Source of the DNA: an uncultured virus (IMG/VR IMGVR_UViG_3300012954_000006) | Taxonomy: Duplodnaviria; Heunggongvirae; Uroviricota; Caudoviricetes | Direction: 5' to 3' (one strand) | Virus record (IMG/VR): IMGVR_UViG_3300012954_000006 | Length of the DNA stretch: 39,418 nt | In this document: positions 7,003 through 35,119 of the stretch, piece after piece | Position numbering within the stretch: position 1 is the first letter of the stretch | Layout: each line of letters begins with the position of its first letter | Made by a program: the position numbers and the translations under genes | The notes under the pieces: generated by a model | Seen by the model: the letters and a program-made list of their open reading frames with translations, nothing else | The model's database searches: none | Told to the model about the DNA's origin: nothing

Positions 7003-7821
7003 ATGACTAACAAAAATCTACCCTTAATAGAATTTTGCAATATTGTAATGCCTGACTATCAGGCTACATGGTTTCATAAACTGATTGCTTCCAAACTAGA
7101 AACCTTTTTAAAAGATGATATTAAACACCTTATTATTAATCTACCTCCTCGTCATGGCACTACGGAGTTGTGTGTGCGAAAATTTATTCCCTACGCCATT
7201 GATACACAATCGCCTATTCGCATCAATTTTCGCTCCTACAACCGATGTCTTACAGATTCAATAATGCGTGACTTGTTTCGGCATTATGTTAGTCGTTATA
7301 AATATACATTTGGCTTACCTAACTGTGTAATAACTGAAGGTGTAGGAAGTCCAACAAATATTCTTTTTAGAAATGGCTCTAATATTAGTGATGATATATC
7401 CATTGAGACAGATGCTGATATTTATATTTATGATAGCATCGAAAGCAGAAAAGTGTCATTAGACTATATTTATGAGCCTGTGAAATGCAATACGATTTTA
7501 GAATCAGCAAAGTAAGGGAAAGTCTTATTTCTTAGCCATAGGTATGCATACAATGATTACACTAATAGACTATTGAAATCTAATATAGGAAGTTTGTTTG
7601 AAGTGGTTAGTATTCCTGCTATTAAGACAGCAAATAGCGACTGTAAAGAAGATAATAGAAGTGTGGGTAAGGCATTATGGCATAACAGAGATAGCCTTTC
7701 ATATTTGTTGCAATTAAAAAACGAGGACTTGGCACTATTTGAAACCTTTTATCAACAGCAGCCAATGAGCCAAATTGATTTGGAGCGATTGGATGAGTTG
7801 AAACAGAAAATGAAACTGTAA
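7003..7821 (+). pseudogene. Degenerate terminase large subunit ATPase domain only, split by in-frame TAA at 7513-7515
   Basis: YQATWFHKLIASKLE...LIINLPPRHGTTE (canonical PPRHGKS/T); frame continues *GKVLFLSHRYAYNDYTNRLL...FEVVSIPAI...GKALWHNRDSL...FETFYQQQP; stops before any nuclease domain. Confidence 0.75.
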
Positions 7822-8603: not shown

Positions 8604-8634
8604 AAAAGCAGTAACTACTCCAATAGCTACTGCT
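8604..8634 (-). terminator. Intrinsic terminator
   Basis: AGCAGTAGCTA...TAGTTACTGCT-TTT on minus strand. Confidence 0.65.
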
Positions 8635-8666
8635 CTATTTTATACCCAAAAACATTTTACACTTTA

Positions 8667-9308
8667 TTATGACTTATTCTTCAATGTATTTAAGACAAAG
8701 GCTGCTTTACCAAATGTTTTAGTATCAGCATGATAAAACTTATCTTTGGTGAAATGTCTTTTAGCACGAGATTGTAAATCTTCTAGCTCAAAATGATACG
8801 CCTTATTGCCTTTGTTTTTCATGTTGAAATTATCTGCAAACAAGCATGGCAAAAATGTCTGAATATCACAAGGTTTTGCATCTACCGTAACTTGTGTCGT
8901 AACTCCGCACATTTTAAAATATTGATAAAGATAAACGTCTGTAAATTCTTTACAGAAAGATTCTGTTGATGCAAAAAACAACTCGTCAATATGCTTTGTC
9001 AAAAAGCTTTCCTTAAAAAGTTCAAAAGCAAGTATCTTGAGCATATTGGTTTCGTACTTTAACGTTTCAATATCAACATTTAGATAGCAGGGGTTAAAAA
9101 CTGTATCGCCTAGATAATAAATCTCATCAAGCGTTAGCACCTTTTCAGAACCTTTCATTTTTATCTGAACAAAATCATGGATTCTAAAAGTAAATAACTT
9201 GAAACGCTCAAACAATGTTTTAATACGCTTTATTTTAAGGTCATACTTTATTTCCTTTTCAAACCCTAAGTAATAGCTTGTCGCAAATAAATGGTTTTTT
9301 TTATTCAT
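8667..9308 (-). CDS. Hypothetical protein
   Basis: 213 aa ORF. Confidence 0.75.
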   Translation of the reverse strand: MNKKNHLFATSYYLGFEKEIKYDLKIKRIKTLFERFKLFTFRIHDFVQIKMKGSEKVLTLDEIYYLGDTVFNPCYLNVDIETLKYETNMLKILAFELFKESFLTKHIDELFFASTESFCKEFTDVYLYQYFKMCGVTTQVTVDAKPCDIQTFLPCLFADNFNMKNKGNKAYHFELEDLQSRAKRHFTKDKFYHADTKTFGKAAFVLNTLKNKS

Positions 9309-9328
9309 GTTTTTAAATTTAAGTCTTA

Positions 9329-9384
9329 TTTTGCGTAGCGTCAGCAGTAACTATATTTATAGTTGAAAGCGATGCTTCGCAAAA
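9329..9384. repeat. Hairpin repeat family B, copy 1
   Basis: TTTTGCGTAGCGTCAGCAGT-AACTATATTTATAGTT-GAAAGCGATGCTTCGCAAAA; second copy 26284-26335. Confidence 0.9.
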
Positions 9385-9392
9385 AGTTATTA

Positions 9393-9728
9393 TTATTCTA
9401 CTGTATTGATTAGTTCTTCAATCGGTATGTCCAACGTTTTTGCTATCGTGACAACTTCCATTTGAATTTCTTTGATATTATTTTTAACAACCTCAAAGTG
9501 ATTGTCATTCTCAACGTTTGGCTCGGCTTTATGTTTTTCATGCAAGGCAAGCCAGTCATTATAAAAAGCTATTTTGTCTTGTAATTTTCGCCACAAAACA
9601 AACTTATCGAAACTGTTTCGTTGCTCTTCATATAAATCTCGTACCTTTTCTATATAGGTCTTTCGCTTTTCAGCGTTAGCACCCATTTGATACTTTAGAA
9701 TATCTATTTTCTCTTGAATATTTATCAT
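9393..9728 (-). CDS. Hypothetical coiled-coil protein
   Basis: Helical, charged ORF of ~111 aa. Confidence 0.7.
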   Translation of the reverse strand: MINIQEKIDILKYQMGANAEKRKTYIEKVRDLYEEQRNSFDKFVLWRKLQDKIAFYNDWLALHEKHKAEPNVENDNHFEVVKNNIKEIQMEVVTIAKTLDIPIEELINTVE

Positions 9729-9731
9729 CAA

Positions 9732-10856
9732 CTAATATATTTTAAATTGTTGTGCTTGTGCTGTTAAAAAATGAAGTTGCTTGTCTGTCTCTAATTGAGA
9801 CAATATATAGTTCCCAAGTATCTTTCCTATGGAATCATTAGAAGCAGTTTCAATATCAATATTATTATTACGCAACACCTGCAATGCTTGACTTGTCAAA
9901 ATTTCGTTATTGGGTTTTGGCTCGCTATATCGTGATGGCATACTCAATAAATTGTAATCAATATAAACAAAGCTACCCTCTATTTCAAAGTAGCTGTTAC
10001 TATCCATATTTATTAACGATGTTTCATAGCGATAGCTACCATCAAGGCTTAGCCGAATACAATTGCCACCTACAACTGACTTGCACTCATGGTATGCCAA
10101 ATTAGGAAACTGCCCTTGTAAAACTTTGTATATGGCATGAAAAATAGATGTTACCTTGAGTTCTTTTACAATATCCTCAATACTATTAGACAAAGGAATA
10201 CGCCTTCCCCAGCCTGTTTTTGAGCTATCAGAAAAGTTATTGTAAATAATGGTATCAGAATACGCACAAAAACGCAATTTCTTTCCATGCCCACAAGCAT
10301 AGGCTTGTGTTTCATCTATTGTATTATAATCTTCCAGCAGCACCAAAAAGCCATTATCTCTCAAAGCAGCAGTCAGTTGGCGGTGCTTGGGATAGTGTGC
10401 TTTATCAAAATTTTCATCATATCCATCTATATCTGCTTCAAATTCCAAAGGACTAAAGTTGTTGTTTTTTTGGTGGTAGCGATAAGTGTCCGTTCCTTGC
10501 CACCCATCATAAAGCAAGAAACGACTACCAACAGGTATGTTCTTTATCTTCTGCAATCGTCTAATCATTGCTTTTAGCGACACTCTTTCCTTCAATATAG
10601 GATATATTGTCACTTCATGGCTAGTAAATAGTGGATAACGGGTGGTTCTCTTGTCGGTATGCAAACAAGGTAATCCTTGATTGTACCTAAAACACTGCTC
10701 TGTTTGGCTGTAAAAAGCGTTTAATTCTTTACAATACTGTATGTCATAACCAAACACATTGATGTATTCTTGTTTTTCTAGTACAGCTTCCAAAAAATAC
10801 CTTTTAATCCGCTGTTGTCTAGGCAGTAAATATCCTATCTTTTTATTGTTACTCAT
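9732..10856 (-). CDS. Hypothetical protein
   Basis: 374 aa ORF. Confidence 0.8.
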   Translation of the reverse strand: MSNNKKIGYLLPRQQRIKRYFLEAVLEKQEYINVFGYDIQYCKELNAFYSQTEQCFRYNQGLPCLHTDKRTTRYPLFTSHEVTIYPILKERVSLKAMIRRLQKIKNIPVGSRFLLYDGWQGTDTYRYHQKNNNFSPLEFEADIDGYDENFDKAHYPKHRQLTAALRDNGFLVLLEDYNTIDETQAYACGHGKKLRFCAYSDTIIYNNFSDSSKTGWGRRIPLSNSIEDIVKELKVTSIFHAIYKVLQGQFPNLAYHECKSVVGGNCIRLSLDGSYRYETSLINMDSNSYFEIEGSFVYIDYNLLSMPSRYSEPKPNNEILTSQALQVLRNNNIDIETASNDSIGKILGNYILSQLETDKQLHFLTAQAQQFKIY

Positions 10857-11218
10857 TCTTCTACATCCTCAAAATCGACGTAATCAAAGTCATTGATACC
10901 ATTAAAGCCTCTTTTTAGTCGGTGCGATTGTGGTATAGTGGATTCTTTTTTGGGTACTTGAAAGTCGAACTTAGGTATTTTATGTAGATTATCCATCAAA
11001 GCTTGCAAAATTCTGTTATGTTCCACATACATATTTTCGCTAGTTAGGCGACCCATCATCATGTCATTTTCAGCACGTTTGTAACGTAATTGAAATAGGT
11101 TAAAAAAGCTTTTTAGCTTTTTGTCATTGGTGTGTCTCAAAGCTTTATCTATTTCCTCAAAAGCTTTATTTACTTCATTTGCTGAAATTAAATCTCTTAT
11201 ATACTGTTGAAATTCCAT
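10853..11218 (-). CDS. Stand-alone effector-associated domain (EAD11-like) protein
   Basis: IRDLISANEVNKAFEEI...FNLFQLRYKRAENDMMMGRLTSENMYVEHNRILQALMDNL matches the EAD11 pattern (LI..G..E.A.E.L...RY...E.....G.IS.E....E.NRI..ALL). Confidence 0.75.
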   Translation of the reverse strand: MEFQQYIRDLISANEVNKAFEEIDKALRHTNDKKLKSFFNLFQLRYKRAENDMMMGRLTSENMYVEHNRILQALMDNLHKIPKFDFQVPKKESTIPQSHRLKRGFNGINDFDYVDFEDVEE

Positions 11219-11222
11219 AAAT

Positions 11223-11792
11223 TTATTTTTTGATTTTTTTTATAATAAATGTTTCTACTTGTCGTAATACGCCATCTTTAAGGTGTAGAAATACCTTGCT
11301 ATGCAATAAAAAGTTTTTGTGGTGGCTGACAATCACTAAATAGTCTGTAGCTTTTTCTCGCTTGACATATTCTTTTACATAAAGCGATACAGGATTTTGC
11401 ACCAGTTCATTATTATAGAGTAACGTACCATCTTCGTCTGTAAGTGTTCCTAAGTAGTATTCAGATATAATCCTAAAGTCTAATTTTTGAAACCTTAGTT
11501 TGCCATTATAGCATACCACAAAGCCAAATACTTTTTGAGGATGATTAGCGTAGTTACTCAACTCTAACAATCCAAACAGCACCTCGTAAATGTAATCCCA
11601 ATTATACTGAAATAGCGGTGTGCCATATTTATCAAAAATATTATAGCTACTCCCTTGTTTATACCAATACCTGCCTATTTTGGCTTCTAATGGCAACTTT
11701 GTTCTATCAAAGGTTTGCACTAATGTCTGAAACCTTTTCTTTTTAAAGTGTCTTATAATACAATTCATGGCTAATAAATTAAGTCGGAACAA
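11223..11792 (-). CDS. Hypothetical protein
   Basis: 189 aa ORF, start uncertain. Confidence 0.65.
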   Translation of the reverse strand: MFRLNLLAMNCIIRHFKKKRFQTLVQTFDRTKLPLEAKIGRYWYKQGSSYNIFDKYGTPLFQYNWDYIYEVLFGLLELSNYANHPQKVFGFVVCYNGKLRFQKLDFRIISEYYLGTLTDEDGTLLYNNELVQNPVSLYVKEYVKREKATDYLVIVSHHKNFLLHSKVFLHLKDGVLRQVETFIIKKIKK

Positions 11793-12184
11793 TCCGATGG
11801 TTCTAACACGAGTAAGCAGTCAGGACATTGCAGTTGCTCTTGCTCTTGATTTATTTTGTGGAAAAAGACTCTGTCACAGTCCCCACAACAGACTACATTT
11901 ACGCCTGCCTTTTCTCTTATATCGTTAAGCAGTTCTAGCTGTTGAGTTTCTAATTGTAATTTTTGATATTTTTTTGTTTTCATTGTTTTTCCATTTACTG
12001 ATAATGTAACTATTGCTTGCAACGGTATTGCTTGGTTGGTTTTGCGTCTCTTTTGTAGCAAGAATTTCATGTCACCCAAAGACATTCCATCTAAATTAGC
12101 TATTTCATCCCACACTTGTTGCACCTCATCTATAGACATTTCATCAAGTATAGCTTTTAATTTTTTGGACAGTTCTGATTTCAT
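11771..12184 (-). CDS. Hypothetical protein with C-terminal zinc ribbon
   Basis: CGDC...CPDC pairs. Confidence 0.7.
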   Translation of the reverse strand: MKSELSKKLKAILDEMSIDEVQQVWDEIANLDGMSLGDMKFLLQKRRKTNQAIPLQAIVTLSVNGKTMKTKKYQKLQLETQQLELLNDIREKAGVNVVCCGDCDRVFFHKINQEQEQLQCPDCLLVLEPSDCSDLIY

Positions 12185-12732
12185 CGTAATATATATTTTA
12201 TTTTAAACAACACATCTTGAAACTCAATATTTGGACACCTGATAAGACAAGCATTACAACCGCAAAGCTGTAAATGTCGTACTTCAGGTTTAGTGAAGTC
12301 TTTAAAGCGTTTACCTTCAAAAGCTCGATAAAACAGCAAGTCTTTGAGTGCAAAATTACCTGTCGTAAAATCAAGCAAGCAACAAACCCATACGCCACTC
12401 TCAATAATATCAGAATACCCATAGCATTGTCGGATATATATAGTTGGTAATGATAAGTCTATTAACATAGACTCTATGGTTTGTATTTTTTGAAGCATCG
12501 ACCAACGACCATAATCTTCCCAAAGAGCGTTAGAAATCTGAAACGTTCCATCTTCTATATTCCCTAGCCCCCAACCTAATGTACCGTTATGCTTTTGGAC
12601 AGATAACTTAGATACGCATGGAAATGTATCTATTTTTCCTCTTTTTTCTAACAGCCACGTTGTTAGCGATTCTTTTGTTTCCCTAGCTAAAGCTCCATCT
12701 ATTTGTTGTTCTAGCTTATTTAAGTCTAACAT
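12181..12732 (-). CDS. Hypothetical protein
   Basis: Likely start MLDLNKLEQQIDGALARETKESLTTWL. Confidence 0.7.
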   Translation of the reverse strand: MLDLNKLEQQIDGALARETKESLTTWLLEKRGKIDTFPCVSKLSVQKHNGTLGWGLGNIEDGTFQISNALWEDYGRWSMLQKIQTIESMLIDLSLPTIYIRQCYGYSDIIESGVWVCCLLDFTTGNFALKDLLFYRAFEGKRFKDFTKPEVRHLQLCGCNACLIRCPNIEFQDVLFKIKYILR

Positions 12733-12830
12733 TGCTTTAATTTTAATCAACAGGTGCCATATTATTTCTTTTTTGAAACTTTATTTTTTTTAACGCTAGT
12801 TTACAACTAGCTATGCGTTTCATTACAACA

Positions 12831-13010
12831 TTAGCAATATTGCTTGTACATATCTATATGCTTGACTATAAAAACTGTTGCATTAGCTCCGTCACAAGCA
12901 CCTGACTGTGCATTTGTTGGGTTGTATAGCAATACCTTATATGTAAGGTCTGAAAAATAAGCAGTATCATTAACTATTATTTTTTGCCCTACTTCTCCAC
13001 AAAATGCCAT
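12831..13010 (-). CDS. Small hypothetical protein (59 aa)
   Basis: MAFCGEVGQKIIVND...KQYC, below ORF track cutoff, fills gap. Confidence 0.45.
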   Translation of the reverse strand: MAFCGEVGQKIIVNDTAYFSDLTYKVLLYNPTNAQSGACDGANATVFIVKHIDMYKQYC

Positions 13011-13042
13011 TGTTATTATTTAATAAGTTATGTAAAATAATC

Positions 13043-13759
13043 TTACTTTACCAAAGGAATATGTTGGTAGTTTTCAGACAAATAATAAGCTACTTGCTTT
13101 TTCCATGCGTCACTATACGGAGTATCTTGATAAGTGTCTTGATTAAAAGTTTCATCAAGACATGTGTTGCCCCGCCACAAACCAACCATTACCTTACCAT
13201 TTTCATAGATGTGGATAGTTGTTTCTACAAATCCTTTTGGACAATTATCCTTAAATGAAACATATTGCTTTACACGTTCATGATTCTTAACAGTTTCTGA
13301 TACATCAATCTTTGGCGACCTTCTATTTGGATAAAGTATATTACGGTCTTCATCATCGCCAAATTGCAAAATGAATATTCGCTTAATCTCCAATGTATCA
13401 TCTCTATCTCTGCCTTGTGCATACGCCATGACACTAGCTATTCCATGTAAAGCATTATACCCGCCATCATTATTTTTTGCTATCGCAAATCCATTGTTTA
13501 GCTGTATTGGTAGTGCATCAAAATTATTTTGCTCCCACTCATACAAAGCATTCATCAACGCTGTGGCACTAAGTACAGGTATAGCATTGACAAGCTTAAC
13601 AAAATCAGTAGCTATTTTTATGCTATAATGCTCTTTAAAAGACAGATACATTTTCTTTAGGCGTTCGTAATTTAGGTCAGACGTTGTCGCACCACGCCCA
13701 GAGTATGCCGCAGGTCTTGAAGACATACCTGTGTGAATTAAAATGTTATGTATGTTCAT
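13043..13759 (-). CDS. Hypothetical protein
   Basis: 238 aa ORF preceded by CGTATCTTTA motif (13776-13785). Confidence 0.8.
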   Translation of the reverse strand: MNIHNILIHTGMSSRPAAYSGRGATTSDLNYERLKKMYLSFKEHYSIKIATDFVKLVNAIPVLSATALMNALYEWEQNNFDALPIQLNNGFAIAKNNDGGYNALHGIASVMAYAQGRDRDDTLEIKRIFILQFGDDEDRNILYPNRRSPKIDVSETVKNHERVKQYVSFKDNCPKGFVETTIHIYENGKVMVGLWRGNTCLDETFNQDTYQDTPYSDAWKKQVAYYLSENYQHIPLVK

Positions 13760-13810
13760 TTTTGTATTATTATTTTAAAGATACGATTTTTATAATAAAA
13801 AATTATCAGT

Positions 13811-14017
13811 TTAATTATTTTTCTTTTCAAAAAAAGCAAGTAATTCGGCTCGAATAGTTATCACATTCCAAGAAAGCAGTAAAAATACTTGCTTGCTATT
13901 TAACAACTGCCATATAGGGCAAGTGCTTTGCCACACAGTAGCTGTTTGGCTATCATGCCATTCCCAAATGGTAACACTACCATCATCGGCTGTACTCTTT
14001 AGTGAAATTGAAATCAT
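13811..14017 (-). CDS. Small hypothetical protein
   Basis: 68 aa ORF with own intergenic region. Confidence 0.5.
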   Translation of the reverse strand: MISISLKSTADDGSVTIWEWHDSQTATVWQSTCPIWQLLNSKQVFLLLSWNVITIRAELLAFFEKKNN

Positions 14018-14094: not shown

Positions 14095-14122
14095 AAAAAA
14101 GCACTCCCCAAAAGAGAGTGCT
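14095..14122 (-). terminator. Intrinsic terminator
   Basis: AGCACTCTC-TTTT-GGGGAGTGC-TTTTTT. Confidence 0.75.
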
Positions 14123-16209: not shown

Positions 16210-17187
16210 TTATTTTTCTGCATAAATAATTGCTTTCTCTTCAATAACACTTACCTCTTCAAAGTAAGCCTCAAAATATCCTAGCAACAAACCATTTAGT
16301 GACTCAAAGTAATTAATAATATCTTTATGCTCTACAAGAAGATTACAAGGATATTTGTATGCCTGCTGTTCTGTATATGCCCAGTCAATGATAGTTCCAT
16401 AAGCATAATACCTGTAAATACCTTCTAAAACGGTATGTGCTTTCTCTATATAATAGCTATTTCCATCTATCTTGCGTATTAATTTGCTAATATGGTTGTG
16501 AAAAAAACCATAATAACGATACAGCATAACCAAATAATGATGTGGGCTATTGTGTTTCTCCATAACCATACCACTAATCGTTCTGTGTGTTTGCTGCAAC
16601 CATATCGAATGTACTTTAAAAGGAGTCCAATCCTCTAATGGTATATGTGACTTGGAAGACTGCCACAATTGCAAAGGTGTAGGTCGTTTTGGTATTAACG
16701 GTGTCTCTATCTGAAAGGGATTATTTCGGCTTTGACTCCACAGCCTTTTTATTATACCATGCTCACTAGAGTCAAAGTCTGCTAATATTGCTTTTAATTC
16801 GGTATATTTTTTGTAGAAAAAATAGGTAGCGATACCTTGATTATTTGCTATGCTTATCATAGGAGCAAGCTTTTTATCGCTCTCGTCTTCTTGTGTGACC
16901 ATACCCAACATATCTAATCTTGTGAGTAAACAAATTTCAAGTGGCAAATCACTAATTTTGTTATAGCTCAAATTCAATAGCTGCAACTGCTTTAAATTGC
17001 CTATCTTACGAGATATGGTTTTAATACGGTTGTGCGAAAGGTCTAACTCTAATAGGTGGTGGCACTCATATACAATCTCTGGCACGCTTTTAAAGTTGCA
17101 ATTAGGCAATACAATACCTGTTATCCCTAAAGGGTCTCCACCATACAATAACTCTTTAAGTTGTTGCTTTGATGTAATGTATGTCAT
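16210..17187 (-). CDS. LRR protein with degenerate Roc-GTPase-like C-terminal region
   Basis: LLELDLSHNRIKTI, LQLLNLSYNKISDLP repeats (clear); APMISIANNQGIATYF / ELKAILADFDSSEHGIIKRL / KVHSIWLQQ resemble the Roco linker, G1 and G3 positions (tentative). Confidence 0.7.
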   Translation of the reverse strand: MTYITSKQQLKELLYGGDPLGITGIVLPNCNFKSVPEIVYECHHLLELDLSHNRIKTISRKIGNLKQLQLLNLSYNKISDLPLEICLLTRLDMLGMVTQEDESDKKLAPMISIANNQGIATYFFYKKYTELKAILADFDSSEHGIIKRLWSQSRNNPFQIETPLIPKRPTPLQLWQSSKSHIPLEDWTPFKVHSIWLQQTHRTISGMVMEKHNSPHHYLVMLYRYYGFFHNHISKLIRKIDGNSYYIEKAHTVLEGIYRYYAYGTIIDWAYTEQQAYKYPCNLLVEHKDIINYFESLNGLLLGYFEAYFEEVSVIEEKAIIYAEK

Positions 17188-29739: not shown

Positions 29740-30516
29740 TTAATAGTTTCCTATAGAGTAATTAGTATGTCTATAAAAAACCAATTCGTAATTTAAGGCA
29801 TCTCCTTCTTTTGAAGCTATCCATGGCATATCTTTCTGCGTATAATCTTGCATTGCTGCTGCCGAACAATCTGCAAACTGCTCAATAACATAGTCAATAA
29901 CTGCTGTTTCGCTGGCCTTCAAAGCTGTCAAATCTGCCTTTACTAAAGGAATATATTTTATTTGTTTACGCTTGTTACATAAGACTTTTATTCGCTGTAT
30001 CTGTTCATTATCTATCATTTCTTGCAAAATGCTATCTAATTTTTCGGGTTTTGGGCCGTTCAATATTTTGCGATAAGTCGCTCCTGTTAGCTGTTCTTCA
30101 TACAATTCATAATAATTGAAATCGACAAAATATAGCATTTTATTCAAAATACTTTTATGGACTTTTGGCTTTCCTGCACATTTTTCGAGCATATACAACA
30201 ATACATTTTTAAATTTTTCAAGCTTTAAAAAAGGCTCTGAAATACGCATTTCAGACTTTTGTGTTTCATCTTTTTTTTGTTCTAGCTGTTCTGTTAATTC
30301 AAAATTTTCTGCAAAAAAGTTTTGTAACGAAAAGCCCAATTGATAGGCTAATTTTTGAAACTCCAACAAATTTACATTTCTTTTTCCCAGCTCAATTTGC
30401 GTCAATGACGGCCGTGAAATATTGATATTTTGAGCCAAATCCGCCTGTGATAAACCTTTGAATTTTCTTATTTTTGCTATCCGTACACCTATTTCTTTTT
30501 TTGATAATGGAATCAT
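29740..30516 (-). CDS. XRE-family HTH fused to DUF4065 (Panacea/SocA-type antitoxin) domain
   Basis: IAKIRKFKGLSQADLAQNINISRPSLTQIELGKR HTH; LNKMLYFVDFNYY...LTGATYRKILNGPKP...DMPW. Confidence 0.85.
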   Translation of the reverse strand: MIPLSKKEIGVRIAKIRKFKGLSQADLAQNINISRPSLTQIELGKRNVNLLEFQKLAYQLGFSLQNFFAENFELTEQLEQKKDETQKSEMRISEPFLKLEKFKNVLLYMLEKCAGKPKVHKSILNKMLYFVDFNYYELYEEQLTGATYRKILNGPKPEKLDSILQEMIDNEQIQRIKVLCNKRKQIKYIPLVKADLTALKASETAVIDYVIEQFADCSAAAMQDYTQKDMPWIASKEGDALNYELVFYRHTNYSIGNY

Positions 30517-34690: not shown

Positions 34691-35119
34691 TTATTCCTCG
34701 ACACGTTCCATTGTATAATCAACATTCATAAAGGTATGTAACTGCAAATTACTTAAAAGTATAGCTACTTCATTCCTCGCCTGTTCCAAATTATATGCGT
34801 ACACATAATAAGTTTTAACTGACGTGTCTGATATTTTCAGAGCAACAGCGTATTTATACTTTGGTATTTTTAGACGTACTTTTGCATATACAACTTCCAA
34901 TCCTTTAAGGTAATTTCTATCTAGCAACCATCTTAAATAGTTGTTTGGGATAGATAGGAATTTTTGCCCTTTATATTTACCAAACTCTAATCTCCTTTCT
35001 GCAATATTGCTGTATCGTCTTTTTTTTACCTTAGATTTTTTGACCTGCGTTTTAAAGGCATCTGTCCAAGATTTTCTTTTCATAATTCTTTTCTCTTTTT
35101 CCGTACTGCTCTTAGCCAT
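34691..35119 (-). CDS. DUF3820-like (FGKYKG motif) protein
   Basis: LEFGKYKGQKFLSIPNNYLRWL; start possibly MKRKSW. Confidence 0.75.
   Translation of the reverse strand: MAKSSTEKEKRIMKRKSWTDAFKTQVKKSKVKKRRYSNIAERRLEFGKYKGQKFLSIPNNYLRWLLDRNYLKGLEVVYAKVRLKIPKYKYAVALKISDTSVKTYYVYAYNLEQARNEVAILLSNLQLHTFMNVDYTMERVEE

Follow-up and report, generated by a model that had tools for sequence, protein, structure and literature searches.

What does an element of phage-like appearance do with the docking domain of bacterial conflict systems when that domain comes without an effector? The question is raised by a 121-residue protein encoded on an uncultured virus contig of 192,865 bp (IMG/VR record IMGVR_UViG_3300012954_000006), of which a stretch of 39,418 nucleotides, here called the window, was analyzed. 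Effector-associated domains (EADs) are proposed, in two papers by Kaur et al. (PMC7159879 and PMC8195603), to couple core and effector proteins through homotypic contacts, and a preliminary description of this DNA, made from its letters, had put their role in the same terms. We find that the protein is a true EAD11 domain without an attached effector.

A Pfam scan matched the protein (N-terminus MEFQQYIRDL, C-terminus NDFDYVDFEDVEE) to PF19964 (EAD11) with a score of 43.7 bits (E-value 2.6e-11), where the curated cut-off is 26. The match covers the full length of the domain, protein residues 3-82 corresponding to positions 2-80 of the 80 in the profile, and the runner-up families, CENPU and RapH_N, gave E-values of 0.02 or more, under their own cut-offs. 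For an independent hidden Markov model (HMM) we took alignment A2, which has 16 rows, and left out the phage protein, keeping the other 15. Run over 403 six-frame segments of the window, this model recovered the open reading frame (ORF) at 10853-11218 with an E-value of 1e-17 and 58.2 bits; it found no second EAD11 among these segments, the next-best of them scoring E 0.3. The phage protein keeps all of the family-conserved positions in both alignment A1 and alignment A2. Searches for further families in the protein gave none in Pfam, PHROGs or PADLOC and nothing credible in NCBIfam. Its only domain is thus one homologous to a host immune adaptor, placed terminally (residues 3-82 of 121) and followed by just a 39-residue tail, with no fusion to an effector, signaling or core domain. 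The GC content of the gene (0.328, with a GC3 of 0.295) matches that of the window (0.335), which indicates a resident gene and not a fresh fragment.

The AlphaFold2 (AF2) model, computed from the 16-row alignment, had a mean predicted local distance difference test score (pLDDT) of 85.8, with 76 residues above 90, and contains four helices at residues 3-12, 16-28, 33-54 and 60-76. In this model the domain is small and all-alpha, and with no enzymatic family match it is taken as non-enzymatic. Residues 83-121 have no predicted secondary structure, with pLDDT values of 57-69 in 10-residue blocks; they hold 9 D/E and 6 K/R residues, arranged as a basic middle (KK, HRLKR) and then an acidic and aromatic tip. 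The two profile matches and the model bear out the preliminary description where it spoke of a helical EAD11-like domain of ~80 residues, and its short tail with an acidic end and no effector is seen here as 39 predicted disordered residues with no second family.

Comparison of the model with known structures was less informative. Foldseek returned 0 matches at E ≤ 0.001 against the PDB and likewise against BFVD, the highest Z in a wide VIA-align search was 9.5 (a designed helical cage), under the helical-bundle bar of roughly 13, and no Death-fold chain was present among the structural matches listed for the model. The predicted EAD11 fold is, then, a four-helix bundle of generic type, for which no specific relative emerged among known structures. 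Such a bundle might have been captured as an adaptor fold and put to use in an unrelated protein-protein contact of the element's own, or might persist as a neutral leftover, with no immune role at all, and among 15 billion collected proteins this one forms a singleton cluster, so that its conservation cannot be shown. We consider this quite unlikely: the reading frame is unbroken, its composition fits the window and the gene sits close against its neighbors, and the retention of every family-conserved position together with a score well over the cut-off argues against decay.

The tail was also searched for relatives of its own. A motif seemingly common to the tails of bacterial proteins consisting of EAD11 alone appeared in one alignment and was absent from another, and it was dropped. 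A metagenome scan with six word patterns did not return the contig of the window itself, and of the 43 stretches that it matched a single one passed tblastn, a 1471-bp contig of 27% GC (L112) in which the tip word NDFDYVDF occurs at 191-274, within an unrelated acidic zinc-ribbon ORF. This contig shares with the window just that 8-residue word, and the resemblance is probably due to chance.

To what kinds of protein is EAD11 joined in bacteria? We scanned 401 genomes from each of three phyla, those of Lishizhenia (which we take to be a Bacteroidota genus), Rhizobium and Priestia, and found EAD11 above the cut-off in 5/401, 1/401 and 0/401 genomes, respectively. The preliminary description had called the domain enriched in Bacteroidota; the pooled Fisher test agrees (p of 0.018), whereas the single comparisons do not reach as far (p of 0.22 against the Rhizobium phylum and 0.06 against the Priestia phylum), and the enrichment has weak support. 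The five positive genomes of the Lishizhenia phylum held 15 matches (7, 3, 2, 2 and 1 per genome). Fourteen of these 15 ORFs were scanned for Pfam partners, one (L093) being left out, and EAD11 was accompanied by SIR2_2 in four, CHAT in two, TIR in one and Roc-COR in one; five more had an unannotated remainder (proteins of 213-392 aa), and the last was a complete solo domain. In three of the four multi-copy genomes examined the partners are adjacent, and in two of these (G356 and G317) a SIR2-EAD11 gene ends right at the start of an nSTAND1 NTPase gene. The gene order of these loci suggests that multiple EAD11 fusions next to nSTAND1 fit an immune adaptor role and the EAD principle set out by Kaur et al.

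The phage protein is the docking domain alone, a domain that bacteria carry on immune enzymes and on the NTPases that partner them; a decoy or cap is the most economical reading. By analogy with other adaptor-only proteins, we tentatively favor, with somewhat less than even confidence, a free-standing EAD11 that occupies the docking surface of host EAD11 and blunts abortive infection. The phage-like element would supply an enzyme-less copy of the domain, and this copy would bind EAD11 in a conflict system of the host. With the docking surface occupied, effectors would be uncoupled from the NTPase core, or the assembly would be capped, and either outcome would blunt abortive infection; the acidic and aromatic tail could in addition block further oligomerization. 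That the protein competes with EAD11-EAD11 recruitment and so inhibits it, as the preliminary description had proposed, is plausible since a phage CARD-only protein provides a published precedent. A more specific version, which we hold to be doubtful, is that an EAD11-only cap would be the minimal form of an unpublished class of phage counter-defense, one that docks on the Roc-COR- or nSTAND1-linked TIR, SIR2 and CHAT effectors of marine Bacteroidota and stops their assembly with its tail.

We modeled one such pairing, using as a stand-in partner the EAD11 of a TIR-EAD11-Roc-COR protein (P0005, residues 176-263, alignment A4). Complex prediction with residues 1-121 of the phage protein (alignment A2), run without controls, gave scores of 0.22 and 0.23, below the mark of 0.32, and counts neither for nor against the pairing.

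A number of observations weigh against a decoy or cap, and several of them lend themselves to other explanations. To our knowledge, binding or inhibition has not been demonstrated for any EAD11, phage or bacterial, and the EAD-coupled systems that we know of come so far from comparative genomics only. In the two bacterial loci of G356 and G317 the nSTAND1 core has no EAD11, so that a simple pairing of a core EAD11 with an effector EAD11 misfits some systems; in these, EAD11 may dock the effector onto the STAND N-terminus instead of onto another EAD11. Nor is experimental EAD11 pairing described in the accessible portions of PMC7159879 and PMC8195603.

The closest relatives of the phage protein, which also count among these points, are just 32-36% identical to it. 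Queried with the phage protein alone, HMMER returned from 1.84 billion representatives four other proteins at E ≤ 0.001, namely an 85-aa EAD11-only protein, one with five EAD11 copies (P0003), an EAD11-Roc-COR protein (P0004) and P0005, and word-indexed profile searches, which covered proteins of near length, gave two other proteins with alignment A1 as the profile and three with A2. Identity between EAD11 copies is low even within one genome (mean 20.5%, 19 pairs) and is similar between genomes (mean 19.2%, 59 pairs). With 13-32% identity to other EAD11 copies, the divergence of the phage copy therefore lies inside the range seen among presumed partners.

EAD11-only proteins are found in bacteria too, one of 125 aa (L083, genome G076) and four of 74-134 aa from metagenomes (P0002, P0006, P0008 and P0009), so that phages did not invent the solo form, which may itself be regulatory. 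Like the phage protein, all five have an N-terminal EAD11 and no tail or a short unannotated one. P0002, P0006 and L083 are 19-32% identical to it over alignment A2, and P0008 is 28% identical by BLASTP. In contrast to the phage protein, they do not carry the tip DFDYVDFEDVEE. L083 lies on a bacterial contig in a genome with 6 further EAD11 genes, unlike the single copy in the window of the phage-like element. The contigs of the four metagenome proteins measure 602-2576 bp, and these proteins may be incomplete.

The element could also be a bacterial genomic island or a degraded prophage, in which case the protein would be a solo EAD11 regulator on the side of the host, like that of G076. The preliminary description had placed the gene in a phage. 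In the window we detected one frame similar to the ATPase of the terminase large subunit, whose positions 7024-7773 align with an E-value of 4.6e-17 to the large terminase of a Microcystis phage (residues 39-311); for its first part there are 84 matches in phages, several of them annotated as terminase, and PHROG matches as well. This frame is interrupted by an in-frame TAA. It could be a pseudogene or a split gene, or the stop could be due to a sequencing error. Stop-codon recoding was considered for this codon and rejected, as the ORFs of the window end in 34 TAA, 10 TGA and 9 TAG codons. No nuclease-domain match was present anywhere in the 39-kb window, and family scans recognized no virion gene among the 57 ORFs scanned.

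The phage collections did not help to place the element, as no relative of it or of its genes was found in INPHARED or IMG/VR. Megablast of window positions 9000-14000 and tblastn of the EAD11 protein, P0002, L083 and P0006 gave no match in INPHARED, and no relative was confirmed by pattern scans of IMG/VR with the EAD11 protein, the terminase fragment, P0002, P0006 or alignment A5. The latter scans require near-exact motifs of 7-10 residues and are for this reason not a sensitive survey; the A5 pattern would miss the phage protein's own motif.

Both the interrupted terminase and the failure to find virion genes or phage relatives favor an island or a degraded prophage. On the other side, just 7 of the 49 ORFs scanned had a Pfam match (ThyA, a helix-turn-helix (HTH) protein with SocA/Panacea, three leucine-rich-repeat (LRR) proteins, QSregVF_b and a borderline DXP_synthase_N), 55 of the 57 scanned ORFs lie on the minus strand, and the terminase ATPase-like segment has its phage matches; such a density of unfamiliar genes is typical of large phages. 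We regard an island or a degraded prophage as improbable, and the element is probably a phage or phage-derived. The placement in a phage is borne out in part, by the terminase ATPase homolog, ThyA and the one-strand array of unfamiliar ORFs, and it is weakened by the interruption of the terminase and the lack of any recognized virion gene.

The host of the element can be addressed through its translation signals. A Shine-Dalgarno-like 4-mer was present at -20 to -5 in just 3 of 53 minus-strand ORFs, and the leaders are 52% A. Such a pattern is consistent with translation initiation of the Bacteroidota type, and it hints weakly at a Bacteroidota host, the 33% GC of the window making the hint a weak one. 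Among sequencing runs, the one DNA run that contains the stretch is labeled marine metagenome and may be its source, and no RNA run is listed. ThyA was tried as a host marker and was uninformative, with about 58-63% identity across several phyla.

The next point against a decoy or cap lies immediately downstream, where the stop codon of the EAD11 gene overlaps the start of a gene for a 374-aa protein. The ATGA arrangement is typical of translational coupling, and the coupled protein could be the real partner of the EAD11 protein. If so, the EAD11 protein may be a recruiting adaptor, which docks on host EAD11 in order to bring in a phage factor (the 374-aa protein, perhaps held by the tail) or to redirect effectors. 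The tail, predicted to be disordered and distinctive at its tip, could indeed be a short binding motif. However, scans of Pfam, PHROGs, PADLOC and NCBIfam gave no family for the 374-aa protein, it has no usable Atlas match and no confident fold, it is the sole member of its own cluster, and nothing ties it to the tail. Stop/start overlaps are moreover common between unrelated phage genes, and 4-nt overlaps occur at 5 of the 52 gene junctions in the window. A recruiting adaptor is accordingly possible but unlikely.

The window represents 39 of 193 kb, and a cognate EAD11 or NTPase core could lie in the other ~153 kb. This last point against a decoy or cap raises the prospect that the protein is a component of a conflict system borne by the element itself, for example one for superinfection exclusion, and pairs with an EAD11 core or effector elsewhere on the element. 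Bacterial genomes do hold dispersed EAD11 copies, the 125-aa solo included, and the window has genes of conflict type, encoding the HTH and SocA/Panacea protein, a ParB-DUF262-like protein and the LRR proteins. No second EAD11, Roc-COR, STAND, TIR, SIR2 or CHAT was seen in the 39-kb window, however, and in the bacterial loci examined the partners are neighbors in three of four multi-copy genomes, as described above. We judge an element-borne system to be unlikely, and a decoy or cap directed at host EAD11 remains the reading that we favor.

The genes around the EAD11 gene and the other features named here are listed in Table 1. The 189-aa protein encoded just upstream matched none of the families in Pfam, PHROGs, PADLOC and NCBIfam. 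A further protein, whose gene lies two genes upstream of that for EAD11, matches NsnA of the Menshen system, and NsnA carries a ParB-DUF262 domain according to the Menshen paper (PMC12065111). We considered this protein as a second decoy and rejected it, since its match falls in the ParB-DUF262 part; it is probably a stand-alone ParB/DUF262-like protein. Terminator-like hairpins at 8605-8636 and 14100-14122 on the minus strand flank a block of genes at 8667-13759 that includes the EAD11 gene. Eight such hairpins were observed in the region, compared with 2.4 expected from shuffles, and the block may be one transcription unit. The window has three LRR proteins, and LRR sensors are also found on the nSTAND1 NTPase beside the EAD11 effectors of genome G356.

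Table 1. Positions of the features discussed. Positions refer to the window unless a bacterial contig is named.
Feature	Position	Strand	Basis or remark
EAD11-only gene, 121 aa	10853..11218	-	ATG 11216-11218, TGA stop 10853-10855
EAD11 domain, residues 3-82	10973..11212	-	Pfam PF19964, 15-sequence profile, AF2 model
Predicted disordered tail, residues 83-121	10856..10972	-	AF2 model, composition; no family match
Acidic/aromatic C-terminal tip DFDYVDFEDVEE, residues 110-121	10856..10891	-	Read from sequence
374-aa ORF, downstream, possible partner or cargo	9732..10856	-	ORF list; no family
ATGA overlap, EAD11 stop/374-aa gene start	10853..10856	-	Sequence
189-aa ORF, upstream, ends 4 nt before EAD11 start	11223..11792	-	ORF list; no family
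137-aa protein, CxxC...CxxC zinc-ribbon-like end	11771-12184	-	Weak Pfam hint, Zn_ribbon_TOP3B, E 0.08
189-aa protein, PADLOC NsnA (Menshen) and phrog_2598	12181-12750	-	E 1.3e-11, NsnA positions 34-170
Terminase-large-subunit ATPase-like frame	7003-7821	+	In-frame TAA at 7513-7515
HTH_3 and SocA/Panacea antitoxin-like protein	29740-30516	-	Panacea E 2.3e-16
Three LRR proteins	16210-17187, 21081-22439, 37085-38218	-	Pfam
142-aa protein, QSregVF_b (putative quorum-sensing-regulated virulence factor) and phrog_3628	34691-35119	-	E 1.3e-6
Bacterial locus G356: CHAT-EAD11, SIR2-EAD11 and nSTAND1-LRR NTPase	L099 5233-11276 (SIR2-EAD11/nSTAND1)		One operon
Bacterial locus G317: EAD11 protein, SIR2-EAD11 and nSTAND1-WD40-TPR NTPase	L101 8837-15162 (SIR2-EAD11/nSTAND1)
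Bacterial locus G045: EAD11 protein and TIR-EAD11			PycTM protein two genes downstream
Bacterial solo EAD11, genome G076	L083:1483-1857		Complete, 125 aa

If a decoy or cap is the correct reading, the protein would be the first inhibitor directed against the EAD-coupled conflict systems that Kaur et al. predicted and would give a first experimental handle on homotypic EAD pairing. An enzyme-less EAD11 borne by a virus would count as evidence from nature that attack can be directed at the adaptor surface, and the protein itself would be a reagent for probing EAD systems, in the way of the DED-, pyrin- and CARD-only proteins and of the phage protein pCARD. In a full-text literature search no phage-encoded EAD was found among the matches listed, and a search on phage anti-defense and EADs returned the pCARD work and no EAD case. 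Neither a phage-borne EAD nor an EAD used as phage counter-defense appears in the accessible portions, supplements aside, of PMC7159879, PMC8195603, a survey of jumbo phages (PMC7824862) or the EVADES preprint, a catalog of anti-defense.

How does the phage protein compare with the EADs as first described? The 2020 text of Kaur et al. (PMC7159879) counts 10 EADs and the 2021 text (PMC8195603) 12, and the name EAD11 is in the main text of neither, a full-text search for it having listed neither paper. The phage protein resembles the EAD11 of Kaur et al. in having a full-length domain that is small, predicted to be all-helical, non-enzymatic and terminal. It differs from their EADs in that no effector, signaling or core domain is fused to it, in its phage-like carrier, and in the absence of a second EAD11 from the window.

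The closest precedent in a phage is pCARD, a CARD-only protein of 141 aa from Acinetobacter phage 133, which weakens bacterial gasdermin defense and reduces gasdermin cleavage (Wein et al., bioRxiv 10.1101/2023.05.28.542683). Both are small phage proteins (121 and 141 aa) that consist of an adaptor domain only, and the same interference with assembly is proposed for both. EAD11 is, however, predicted to have four helices whereas the domain of pCARD is CARD-like with six, and the action of pCARD is backed by plaque and gasdermin-cleavage assays. A decoy built on EAD11 would extend the adaptor-only strategy of phages to a second, unrelated adaptor fold.

In animals, vFLIPs and the DED-only and CARD-only proteins of viruses block recruitment in cell death as adaptor-only decoys. 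Viral pyrin-only proteins interfere likewise, as cited in 10.1101/2023.05.28.542683. The logic proposed here for the phage protein, an adaptor-only decoy set against homotypic recruitment, is that of the vFLIPs and poxvirus pyrin-only proteins. These differ in belonging to eukaryotic viruses and, going by the four-helix model of EAD11, in being built from Death-fold domains, and EAD11 is likened to them by logic and not by homology. Adaptor-only viral decoys are already known, and what would be new here is the different adaptor family, EAD11.

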